DNA of 64,000 bases from Octopus vulgaris (Eukaryota), in contig OX597826.1 of NCBI GenBank assembly GCA_951406725.2, forward strand, positions 26,102,001-26,166,000, read 5' to 3'. The notes beneath the pieces were generated by a model, which saw only the letters and a list, made by a program, of their open reading frames with translations, was not told the origin of the DNA and made no database searches. Position 1 is the first letter of the stretch. Each line of letters starts with the position of its first letter. Of the stretch, positions 4,401 through 11,012 are shown in pieces. The position numbers and the translations under genes were made by a program.

Positions 4401-7400
4401 GCTATCAAAGAACAGTCGCATGCAAATAGAAAGTTTCCGAGACGTTGTTTCTTGATTTGGGTTTTGTTTCCGTGATACAGCAGATTGAAAATGACCCTTT
4501 CTATCCTAAACTGTATATGCATGCACACCGTTATCAGCATTTCTGCAACTTGCAGATTGATTGAAATGTAGAATGCAAAGATGACAGAAGGTATTTTACA
4601 GCCCTGCTTGATCCTATTCTCTACAACAAAAAAGGATCAGTAACTGAGCTGCCTTCAAGCACGGTACCCGTCATACTATTGCGAAATAATGAGCTTAAGT
4701 ACCTTAACAATATTTTGTGGGCAACTAAATTTGTGCAGAACTTTTCAAAAGGTTTGTCGCCAAAATATTTTGTTAAAGCAACGAAGGGCATATAGAGATC
4801 CTAGACCTGCTCTGAGGCCGTCTCCTAGGAATGATGCGAAGGGAATACCATGGTATTATTCCAAAGGAATAAATGGTGTAAAATGCAATCTTCTCATCAG
4901 GAAAGAAAGAGAGCCTCTCTCAACAACAAGACATTATAACAATTACGATGGCTGCCTAAACATCGACACACCTAACTGTATTACCTAGGCAGTCATCGTA
5001 CTTGTTATGATATCTTGTTGTTGAGAGAGGCTCTCTTTCTTTCCTGATGAGAAGATTGCATTTTACACCATTTATTCCTTTGGAATAATACCATGTTGAC
5101 TTCGAAACATATGTTGACTTCGAAACATATGTTGAAAGTAATGGAATTTTATTAACATCTTCGTTCAACTCCATTTATTTATTTATTCATCTATAATACA
5201 CAATTTACTGCACATTAACCCGGAGTTTCTACCTTTGGATAGGTCGCTTCAACCGTGTTTCTGACGTGAATTGCTACCCTGGTAACGGTTCATTGAATTT
5301 TCCATGTTAACGGTAAACATAGGATAATTCATTCACCCATTGAAATATATATATATATATATATATATATATATATATATATATATATATATATATATAT
5401 ATATATATATATATTTACTGCATTATTTACTTACATATCTAGCCATTTTGCTGCCAAAATCAGATAAATATACCCCAAATTTCATTACCCTTAACTGTGG
5501 AAAGCAGTTTTCGTTGGGAGAATGTCATAATTAAAACTGTTCTATTGAGATGTATCAAGTTTATTGGGGCAACGTGATTGCAAAAGTTCTCAGTTCAATT
5601 TTTAGTAGATATTTAACAAAATTACTGGAATAACTATGAAGTTTAATTTCACTGCGAAAGTAATATACATACATACATACATACATACATACATACACAC
5701 ACACACACACACACACACACACACACACACACACACACACACACACACATATATATATATATATTTGTATATATATATATATATATATGTATGTGCGTGT
5801 GTATATGTGCGTGTGTATATGTGTGTGTGTGTATGCGTGTGCATATATATATATATATATATATCGTTTTGGAAATGACAGCAACCCAGTTATATGTTGC
5901 TACCCGTAACTAATTAATTTATTCCACATTACTATAATTTCAGATGAAATCGATGCTGCAGGAACTATCTTGAGAGAAATCTTCAAAGTTCACCAAGATG
6001 ATGGAACATTCGAGAATTCTGTGTCTGACACTGAGTCACAAAATAATAATTTGACGTGTGCGAAAATGAGATGTTCCTGGAAATCGAATTCAGGAACTTG
6101 CACTTTATACACTCCCTATGCTACGCAGTGTAAGTATTACCTTCGTTGTTTGAAATTTTCAGTTATCTTCCGAATATCAAAATGATGTTTGTTGCTGGAG
6201 ATAAATCGTAAATATGAAGGGATAATTCTTTTTTTACGGAGAATAAAAATGCGAAAACAAAAAGAAGAAAAAAAACGGCCCATACTCACCTTAGTGAGTA
6301 GCATCTTATAAAATAAAATAAAACGAAAGAATTGGTGCAGGCGTGACTTGTGGTAAGAAAATGTCTTCCCAGTCACATAGTTCCGAATTCAGTCTCAGTG
6401 AGTGACACCATAAGCAAATGTCTTCTATTGTAGTCTCGGGCCGACTAAAGCCTTGTGAGTGAATTTGGTAGACGGAAACTGAAAGAAGCCTCTCGTATAC
6501 ATATATTTTTTCTTCATACGATTTAATCTATATTGCTTTTGAAGGTTTTATCACCTTCTGTATATGGGTGTGTACACACACACACACACACACACATACA
6601 CATATATATATATATATATATATATATATATGTATATATATATATGTATATGTATATATGTATGTATATATATATATATATATATATGTATGTATATATA
6701 TATATATGTATATATATATGTATTATATATATATGTATATATATATATATATATATATATATATATATATATATATATACATATATATACATACATATAT
6801 ATATACATATATATATATAAATAAATAAATAAATAAATATATATATACATATACATATATATACATATACTTACATATATATATATATGTATATACATAC
6901 ATATATATATATATATATATATATATATATATATATATATATATATATATATATATATATATATATATATATGTTGTCTCTGTTTAACTTGGCCACATCT
7001 ATCTGCAGCCCTATGCTTATTGTTTCGGTTTCTATTAGACAAGCGAAATTATAAAACTATAAAATTATAAAATTATAAACCTAGGAGGTTCGACAAAAGA
7101 GACCGATAAAATGAGTACTAGGATTAAAACATAAGTCGTAGGGTCGATTTGTTCAGCGAAAACCGTCCAAGGTGGTACTCAAGCGAAAAGCTTAGCGTTA
7201 TATTGCTCGTCGCTCTGTTCAGAGTTCAAATTCTGCCGGGCTTGGCTTTGCCTTTTATACATTCGGGGTCGATTAAATACGTCCTAGTTACGCCCTGGGG
7301 TCGATGTGATCGACTATCCCACATCCCTAATCTTTACATCTTGCGCCTATTTTAGAAAAGATTATTAACTTTATTATTACGACGGCGACCTGGGAGAACT

Positions 7401-10400: not shown

Positions 10401-11012
10401 GGCGAAAGAGAGTAACAGAATGTGTCGAAACGATCGTAGTGATAGACAAAGTTTCCAGTATACTCTATTTTCCGTATGCATTGTTTCTTCTATATATGTG
10501 TGTGTGTGAATGCGTGTTTGTGTGCATGTGTGTGTGTGCGCGCGCGCTGGCGCGCGTGTGTGTGTGTGTTTGTGTCTGTGCATGCACTCAAATATTTTCT
10601 CTCTCATACACATAAGAATATATAACGTGCATCTTCACCACTCGTTAATTACTATATTTTTTAAATTTATTATGCAGGAGACGGGATGGTCACATATTTC
10701 AATTTCCGCATTTTAAATAAATCTTATCGACTTGAAGTCAGAGAAAGAAGAATCACCTGCCCTCGTGCTATTGTATGCCTTAAACTAACAGTGAGTTATG
10801 GTTGCCGTCGATTGATTTATAATTTCGGTTGTACCAGGAATATTTACCAAGACACTGAAAGTAAACCAGTGAAGGGAGTCGTCAATTGGAATTCCAATCT
10901 CAAAAATTGCATGGAATCCGAAGATGTTGATTCTGTTAAAACTGAGAATGTCAAAAACTTTATTGAATCAAATCAAAATGAAAATTCTCTCAAGTGGGAC
11001 CATGATGCCTAG
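1470..11012 (+). CDS. Secreted precursor protein, paralogue 1 (4 exons: 1470-1566, 5944-6129, 9069-9152, 10678-11012; 233 aa)
   Basis: Manual splicing with GT..AG junctions (gtaagc, gtaagt, gtgagt donors; pyrimidine-rich cag/tag/cag acceptors), all phase 1. The joined exons total 702 nt in one frame: [42 protein letters not shown]...[14 protein letters not shown]...[11 protein letters not shown]...[10 protein letters not shown]...IVCLKL...[10 protein letters not shown]...[11 protein letters not shown]. Hydrophobic N-terminal signal peptide. The exon structure recurs in the other three copies. Confidence 0.88.
2232..2633 (-). mobile_element. Octopus-type tRNA-derived SINE
   Basis: Reverse complement of the family consensus seen at 14540, 23442 and 62525 (tRNA-like head, internal TA/TG tract, agtaaaag tail). 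Confidence 0.85.
3360..4845 (-). mobile_element. Decayed RTE-clade LINE fragments
   Basis: Minus-strand remnants of RT motifs (GIKQGC near 4600, FLFACD near 4420) and a [12 protein letters not shown] zinc-finger-like segment at 3480-3515; many stops. Confidence 0.55.
4849..5340 (+). mobile_element. Penelope-derived fold-back element (110-bp inverted arms 4849-4958 / 4986-5095)
   Basis: Near-perfect inverted repeat with a 27-nt spacer. The tail is similar to 19570-19715 and ends in (TA)n. Confidence 0.7.
5039..5138 (+). ncRNA. Type-I hammerhead ribozyme motif with canonical core
   Basis: ctttc-CTGATGA-GAAG...CTTC-GAAA-CATATG-TT-gaaag: 5-bp stem I, stem II with a long loop, palindromic stem III. 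Includes an 18-bp tandem duplication (atgttgacttcgaaacat). Confidence 0.7.
7545..8505 (+). mobile_element. Two tandem copies (partial 7545-7866, longer 7950-8503) of a retroposon with (ATT)n tails
   Basis: Direct repeat of about 320 bp (taagggttgtttaag...gcatcagggc), each copy followed by an (att)n array. Confidence 0.7.

Follow-up and report, generated by a model that had tools for sequence, protein, structure and literature searches.

Gene structure and tandem cluster

The genome of Octopus vulgaris carries a tandem family of genes for putative secreted, cysteine-rich proteins, four of which (copies 1 to 4) lie in the 64,000-nucleotide (nt) window analysed here (GenBank assembly GCA_951406725.2, contig OX597826.1, positions 26,102,001 to 26,166,000, forward strand). 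Each encodes all or part of a domain of about 99 amino acids (aa) framed by cysteines (Cys), here called the core, which an earlier note made from the sequence alone had described as length-invariant and hypervariable inside conserved flanks. In copies 1, 2, and 4, the core sequence diverged more rapidly than neutral DNA, which points to positive selection.

Copy 1 (plus strand, as are all copies below) has four exons, with all introns in phase 1, and a product of 233 aa. Exon 1 (1470..1566; matching database protein P0011) encodes a hydrophobic N-terminus and ends in a phase-1 GT donor; the N-terminus is taken as a signal peptide from its hydrophobicity rather than from a dedicated predictor and forms a helix (residues 4-17) in the AlphaFold2 model. 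Exon 2 (5944..6129, 186 nt) encodes an acidic pro-region plus core residues 1-19, including Cys1 and Cys10; exon 3 (9069..9152, 84 nt) is the core exon that varies most; exon 4 (10678..11012) encodes the rest of the core to Cys99 (10830-10832), an acidic tail, and the stop. The Cys codons of the core span 6072 to 10832, one position off the coordinates first given for it. The 3' untranslated region (UTR; 11013..11271) holds AATAAA at 11251-11256 and ends in poly(A) at 11271.

Splicing and polyadenylation were read from contigs of sequencing runs marked "RNA?" or "?", labels that are a guess; none of the runs with copy 1 sequence is recorded as RNA. Contigs of three of the four runs compared supported both joins, from exon 2 to 3 and from exon 3 to 4, with GT..AG borders, the second at 9152-10678. 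In runs X1, X8, and X17, the loose end at the 3' border of exon 2 connected to exon 3, and the poly(A) site was a loose contig end in run X8; run X16 leaves the greater part of the exon 4 core segment without coverage. Among the matches listed, copy 1 sequence was found in 20 runs from 10 studies. Copy 1 is a spliced, polyadenylated gene. It has four additional Cys (residues 71, 150, 165, and 200; window 6057-10910) missing from copy 4, which possibly form new disulfides.

Copy 2 (16478..20814; exons 16478-16699, 17381-17464, and 20500-20814) is broken: its exon 4 lacks 20 nt relative to that of copy 1, is frameshifted, and meets a stop at 20625-20627, and an exon 1 was sought upstream and not found. 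Copy 3 (28564..38106; exons 28564-28654, 33907-34119, 36289-36372, and 37754-38106) is intact and of a six-Cys type. Copy 4 (44378..56947; exons 44378-44459, 46203-46418, 50859-50942, and 56616 [or 56619]-56947) is intact and of a four-Cys type; its tandem acceptor CAGCAG gives a core of 99 or 98 residues, and both forms are annotated in O. sinensis (P0027 and P0008). An in-frame ATG upstream (44330-44377) gives copy 4 a further 16 residues in the O. sinensis and O. bimaculoides models P0008, P0027, and P0031. Exon 2 measures 186, 222, 213, and 216 nt in copies 1 to 4, just as first reported, and exon 3 measures 84 nt in all four. The database equivalents of copies 1, 3, and 4 are P0011, P0001, and P0008, respectively.

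A search of 344 kb of the contig surrounding the window (G000 contig C13) found 15 copies in tandem across ~287 kb, from -101775 to 185566 in window coordinates, and a single further fragment of exon 4. Complete cores were built for 11 copies, and a partial one, ending at the lesion, for copy 2; tblastn alone placed three outlying copies. Copy c0 (G000:C13:26078988-26088849; window -23013 to -13152) is a mosaic: its exon 1 is 96% and the upstream 500 nt 91% identical to copy 1, and its exons 2-4 are 79-95% identical to c5 (copy 3/5 type). Copy c9 (G000:C13:26260705-26267472) has an intact frame; its exon 1 was sought upstream and not found. A phase-1 donor within exon 4 of c8 (~26254012, G000:C13) fits a c8-c9 join in the O. 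bimaculoides models P0010 and P0029, which suggests a two-domain form. The exon 1 donor of c5 is GC rather than GT (G000:C13 ~26168030). Model P0003 of O. sinensis links copy 3 exons 1-2 with c5 exons 3-4; the joins in this and the other hybrid models (P0007, P0010, and P0029) are known from models, not reads, and these hybrids may be annotation artefacts. Homologues occur in O. bimaculoides, Argonauta, and one cuttlefish, and the family is therefore coleoid-wide.

The core domain and its relatives

The Cys spacing C-x8-C-x70-C-x17-C (99 aa) is identical in copies 1, 3, and 4, and copy 2 agrees up to its lesion, as had been noticed. The proposed length invariance stood for 9 of the 11 built copies and failed for c8 (98 aa) and cM (101 aa), for the alternative 98-residue form of copy 4, and for the relatives (99-104 aa). 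Core Cys number six in copy 3, four in copy 4, and six, at partly different positions, in copy 1. Cys11 and Cys21 are both present in 8 of 12 copies and both missing in copies 1, 2, 4, and c9 (apparently also in P0015), a joint loss that is expected of a disulfide pair.

AlphaFold2, run with a 25-sequence alignment, predicted the core as nine beta strands with short turns (block predicted local distance difference test [pLDDT], 81-92) and the pro-region and tail with low confidence; this model superseded an earlier one that was too weak (pLDDT, 46). From the predicted strand boundaries, Cys1-10, Cys81-99, and Cys11-21 would face each other across hairpins. A disulfide-pinned beta domain tolerates few indels, so the near-fixed core length needs no special mechanism. 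Targeted hypermutation was considered and found unsupported: Cys codons (TGT/TGC) at the four positions are not position-fixed (9/2, 3/8, 5/5, and 6/4), and transitions/transversions number 52/77 in the core versus 20/24 in the UTR.

Searches with the core gave no PDB sequence match at E<0.1, and Foldseek found nothing at E<=0.001 against PDB and viral models with either predicted model. VIA-align returned no match with Z>=8, so that the fold is neither named nor excluded; its best matches (Z 7.5-7.6) were to the FAIM N-terminal domain (PDB 3mx7; Z 7.5, root mean square deviation 2.8 over 83 residues), which shares 7% identity, lies below the Z of 8 that bounds the usual background of this search, and implies no function.

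None of the eight exon translations of the window had a significant match in Pfam, nor did P0001, P0008, or P0011. The top cluster members scored 14.7-18.7 bits against DUF4773 (PF15998), below its gathering cut-off of 27, while aligning to profile positions 2-113 of 118. Family profile A1 found the relatives P0019, P0021, P0025, and P0026 (E, 2e-10 to 8e-4), each of which passes that cut-off (33-37 bits), and hhalign matched the copy 1/4 group to these four at 95.7% (E, 1e-8); P0023 and P0024 were dropped from the profile matches as repeat-driven false hits. The likeness includes the start C-x-W-x6-C-C and the end C...GC, and the octopod copies retain six or four of the eight Cys of the passing relatives. 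UniRef names three O. bimaculoides homologues DUF4773. The nearest Atlas structure belongs to a DUF4773 cluster, with a template modelling (TM) score of 0.67 over 108 residues, below the tool's naming bar, and feature scores of 0.81-0.82 that are leads only. Through its homology to proteins that pass the cut-off, the core appears to be DUF4773-like and distantly related by transitivity, and we do not file it as a formal member. To our knowledge, no function is established for DUF4773.

Further DUF4773-like exons lie outside the cluster (G000 C13:39576124-39598307 and C9:46473867-46497816), one of them over the Pfam cut-off. In another cephalopod, P0026 belongs to a cluster of 15 near-identical His-rich members (P0026 and P0036-P0049); among five of these sequences read, differences fall mostly in the Cys domain, which hints at allelic diversity.

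Probable positive selection on the core

Copies 1 and 4 share, as had been counted before, 7 of 28 exon 3 residues, 22 of 27 exon 1 residues (23 of 28 with the junction codon), and 17 of 18 residues of the tail motif. Counting gave nonsynonymous/synonymous distances (dN/dS) of 0.09/0.65 in exon 1, 0.32/0.39 in the pro-region, 0.70/0.50 in the core, and 0.21/0.25 in the tail. The non-coding distance, from local alignments in eight of eight blocks, was 0.23 over 1763 aligned columns, a figure biased low. Alignable introns and 3' UTRs had been claimed for the copies in general; this proved right for copies 1, 2, and 4, while copies 1 and 3 align in one of eight flanking blocks (47 nt).

Under a home-written GY94 model with a shared dS of 0.39, the dN/dS ratio (omega) for copies 1 versus 4 was 2.21 in the core (p=0.001 for omega>1) against a flank value of 0.57; separate dS for flank and core (0.33 versus 0.52) fitted no better (p=0.25). 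In neutral simulations, 0 of 1000 replicates had 32 or fewer of 99 identities, the number observed, at distances of 0.234 or 0.30 (means, 61 and 54); 5 of 1000 did so at 0.40 and 10% at 0.50. In fixed windows across the three pairs of copies 1, 2, and 4 (the trio), mismatch was 0.44-0.54 in exon 3 versus 0.11-0.34 in adjoining intron.

Site models were fitted with home-written codon code, naive empirical Bayes, and a check by 79 null simulations on the trio only. For the trio, M2a was better than M1a (p=1.7e-4; ~35% of sites at omega near 7) and M8 better than M8a (p=1.5e-5), and not one null simulation among the 79 attained the observed statistic; the 1-4 pair, which leaves out broken copy 2, gave p=0.003. 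The signal extends to 11 paralogues (M8 versus M8a, p=2e-4, with ~26% of the sites in a class of omega 2.2) and to the eight copies outside the trio (p=0.025). The posterior for selection alternates along the predicted strands (lag-2 rho, 0.34, p=0.008; lag-1 rho, 0.06) and drops with column hydropathy (rho, -0.38), as expected of outward-facing residues.

Recent changes fall in the core as well. Against O. sinensis records (five pairs; the frameshifted end of P0001 excluded, and P0006 and P0009, which are the same as c5 and c7, not taken as independent), 14 of 495 core sites had changed versus 1 of 645 flank sites (p=7e-5), or 7 of 396 versus 1 of 541 without copy 5 (p=0.012). Run X1 has two listed differences from copy 1, both non-synonymous and in the core, and the same substitutions occur in P0011. 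Four of the seven changes in copy 5 are at sites identical between c5 and c0 and may stem from conversion.

Several results weigh against selection on the core or narrow its reach. Copies 3 and 5 show no contrast (omega 0.93 in the core versus 0.67 in the flank, p=0.13). Neither do comparisons with O. bimaculoides orthologues, with 86 of 395 core residues changed versus 89 of 354 in pro-region plus tail (p=0.30). The cores of copies 3 and 4 have 0 of 99 changes each relative to O. sinensis, and selection would therefore be episodic rather than continuous. One-ratio M0 estimates on the core were non-significant (trio, 1.29, p=0.31; 1-4 pair, 1.60, p=0.17) or below 1 (2-4 pair, 0.85), and core dS (0.35-0.53) exceeds the local-alignment intron distance of 0.23, itself biased low. 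Recombination among copies can inflate such tests, and the codon code was both home-written and checked on the trio only.

Without positive selection, a loosely constrained core would drift while conversion preserved the likeness of introns, tail, and signal exon. Conversion or shuffling of exons has clearly taken place, in the c0 mosaic and in a tract shared by copies 1 and 2 (probably a gene-conversion tract; 10927..11076, plus strand) that covers the tail motif and the start of the 3' UTR and has 2 mismatches in 150 columns versus 18 in 85 after it and 15 in 99 before it; gene conversion probably explains some of the flank identity. The M0 interval for the 1-4 pair takes in omega 1, and omega in pro-region and tail is likewise 0.7-0.9. 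However, the tail and UTR of copies 1 and 4 differ evenly (10-25% per bin) and all eight non-coding blocks are similar (0.14-0.29), which makes conversion alone an unlikely cause for this pair; it would need to miss just the three segments that encode the core, which would itself require selection. Drift is also opposed by the lack of any difference between core and flank dS (p=0.25, as above), by mismatches that are lowest at third codon positions (46/47/36), by adjacent mismatches over codon boundaries that are not in excess (0.194 versus 0.189), and by the better fit of M8 than M8a with and without the trio. We regard drift under conversion as the least likely of the alternatives weighed here. 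A figure of 1 of 120 for the intron downstream between c0 and c5 was discarded, as it is mostly microsatellite.

Positive selection on the core is likely. The earlier note had held that a core omega well below 1 with dS far above introns would speak against it; the dS profile of the 1-4 core instead gave dS ~0.27-0.87, equal to omega ~0.9-3, which excludes values near 0.6 and includes 1. Selection on a fixed scaffold, as then proposed, is supported in the clade formed by copies 1, 2, and 4 and more mildly over 11 paralogues; a hypervariable core in conserved flanks is borne out by copies 1 and 4, and not by copies 3 versus 5 or the O. bimaculoides orthologues. As a whole, that observation is partly confirmed and its interpretation partly supported. 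The partial O. bimaculoides orthologue of copy 4 has 11 changes at 49 core sites, whereas the pair of copies 1 and 4 has 67 at 99. The copy 1/4 split is therefore older than the split from O. bimaculoides, and much of the core change may have arisen in a burst after duplication.

In conotoxin and snake-venom phospholipase A2 (PLA2) genes, mature regions diverge faster than introns, UTRs, and signal peptides. Copies 1, 2, and 4 resemble them in conserved signal exon, introns, and UTR, in a Cys-framed domain with omega>1 that exceeds flank, intron, and UTR divergence, and in being tandem paralogues; this contrast is missing in copies 3 and 5. Unlike those products, the octopus domain is a 99-residue beta domain, neither a short peptide nor an enzyme, and its Cys codons vary, whereas conotoxins show position-specific conservation of Cys codons. 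The comparison with these toxins, also drawn at the outset, concerns the mode of evolution only; nothing in the analysis shows venom.

Precursor layout and proposed function

In all 11 built copies, the pro-region is acidic (charge, -3 to -14) and the core basic (+4 to +20); the cores of the four DUF4773-positive relatives carry +14 to +25. The tail appears dispensable, because c10, P0014, P0034, and P0035 end five residues past the last Cys. The last Cys is frequently followed by basic residues (KH, KK, or KR); copies 1 and 4 are exceptions. From their sequences, the products are probably secreted precursors.

A DUF4773 protein is reported from O. vulgaris skin mucus (PMC11431876), DUF4773 is a marker of oyster macrophage-like haemocytes (PMC12064177), and it is among the top locust pleuropodial transcripts, alongside lysozymes (PMC6966819). 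These placements are circumstantial, and the mucus protein may derive from this cluster or from one of the other DUF4773-like loci of the genome.

The charge layout, the surface-biased selection, and these placements together suggest, with moderate confidence, a secreted innate-defence effector or binder. Each precursor would comprise a signal peptide, an acidic pro-region, a cationic 99-residue domain, and a dispensable acidic tail, and the acidic flanks may shield the cationic surface before the protein is secreted or cleaved. The predicted nine-strand beta domain would be pinned by cross-strand disulfides Cys1-10 and Cys81-99, and by Cys11-21 in six-Cys copies. Selection would act on residues facing away from the hydrophobic core and so alter the binding of each copy. 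The effect would be greatest in copies 1, 2, and 4, where the third Cys pair was lost. Gene structure, splicing, charges, and omega estimates are results of the analysis; fold and disulfides are predicted, and secretion, processing, target, and defence role putative. Taken together, we put at about an even chance the explanation that best fits the data, namely, that the cluster encodes secreted DUF4773-like precursors, acting as defence effectors or binders and diversified under positive selection after duplication.

Defensin-type antimicrobial precursors pair an acidic pro-piece with a cationic mature part. The octopus products resemble them in signal, acidic pro-region, and cationic, disulfide-bonded domain (charge in 11 of 11 built copies; disulfides predicted) and differ in a larger, all-beta (predicted) domain, an extra acidic tail, and the apparent lack of a conserved cleavage site; no copy matched an antimicrobial precursor family in Pfam.

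Several points count against the proposed role. The core is near-neutral or weakly basic (+1, +2, and +6) in three outlying relatives. No conserved protease site precedes Cys1 in the copy alignments, and the mature domain is therefore a putative one. No solved homologue, by PDB sequence and structure searches, points to any function, and the RNA status of the sequencing runs is presumed.

A venom or salivary role, in which a secreted scaffold is diversified against prey targets as in conotoxins, is unlikely. It would fit the precursor layout and the core omega>1 in copies 1, 2, and 4, both of which follow the pattern of toxin families, and it draws some support from redulysins and trialysin. 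Like the octopus copies, these have an anionic pro-domain and a Cys-stabilised C-terminal domain, theirs of eight Cys (PMC6891600 and PMC8301361); this eight-Cys domain may be a DUF4773 domain. Redulysin has a DEER cleavage site followed by a Lys-rich lytic domain (PMC6891600), whereas inspection of the octopus copies found no DEER-type site and no Lys-rich lytic stretch on the way from the pro-region to the Cys domain. The unfixed Cys codons, matches to actinoporin-like folds at only Z 4-5 (within background), and the placement of DUF4773 in mucus, haemocytes, and pleuropodia by the papers found to name it further oppose a toxin.

Distinctly unlikely, too, are reproductive or signalling proteins (gamete surface, spermatophore, egg jelly, or pheromone) under sexual selection or species recognition. 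Such proteins would be secreted and fast-evolving and could show recent core-only changes between near-identical genomes, as seen here, and cationic Cys-rich proteins are known from cuttlefish egg cases (PMC4500399). By inspection, however, the motif CX2GX2CCXGCCX8-9C and the 50-55 Cys of these SepECP egg-case proteins (PMC4500399) are not present in the octopus copies. Copy 1 sequence also occurs in the 20 listed runs from 10 studies, and the DUF4773 mentions in the literature searched are somatic.

Unequal crossing-over and local conversion may reshuffle the phase-1 exons of these presumed defence precursors. Exons should be interchangeable between copies because all introns are in phase 1 and core exon lengths are near-fixed. 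It is doubtful, all the same, that the locus serves to generate modular diversity among cephalopod defence proteins, with exons of different copies recombined or spliced together and still giving a 99-residue domain. Possible signs of such a system are the c0 mosaic, the exon-1-less c9 with the donor in c8 exon 4, and the hybrid models; if real, it would be a variable secreted repertoire for recognition or effector functions with positively selected surfaces, and a first function for a DUF4773-like domain.

Literature searches by DUF4773 or domain, LOC and UniProt identifiers, and keywords found no account of the cluster, most subscription papers lying outside the search, and the family is annotated just as "uncharacterized". 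Neither the family nor its selection seems to have been described before, whereas its mode of evolution is already known from toxin and immune families. The octopus has no adaptive immunity, and the diversifying secreted effectors known from it are few; this expressed cluster of 15 copies, with surface sites under selection, offers a concrete candidate for such effectors and a direct route to function for DUF4773-like domains across molluscs and arthropods.

Other elements in the window

Palindromic or inverted-repeat elements lie at 4849-5095, 10269-10493, 15546-16289, and 18631-19500. Between inverted arms, a 187-aa open frame (18672-19235) resembles, by eye, a GIY-YIG/Penelope remnant. Also by eye, Helitron/PIF1-helicase-like remnants occur at 24818-26200 (frames 24818-25327 and 25593-25967) and 62200-63800, a decayed long terminal repeat-type element (30900-33200) occupies part of copy 3 intron 1, and the introns of copy 4 hold two near-identical 3' fragments of a non-long terminal repeat retrotransposon on the minus strand (49226-50473 and 55453-56250).

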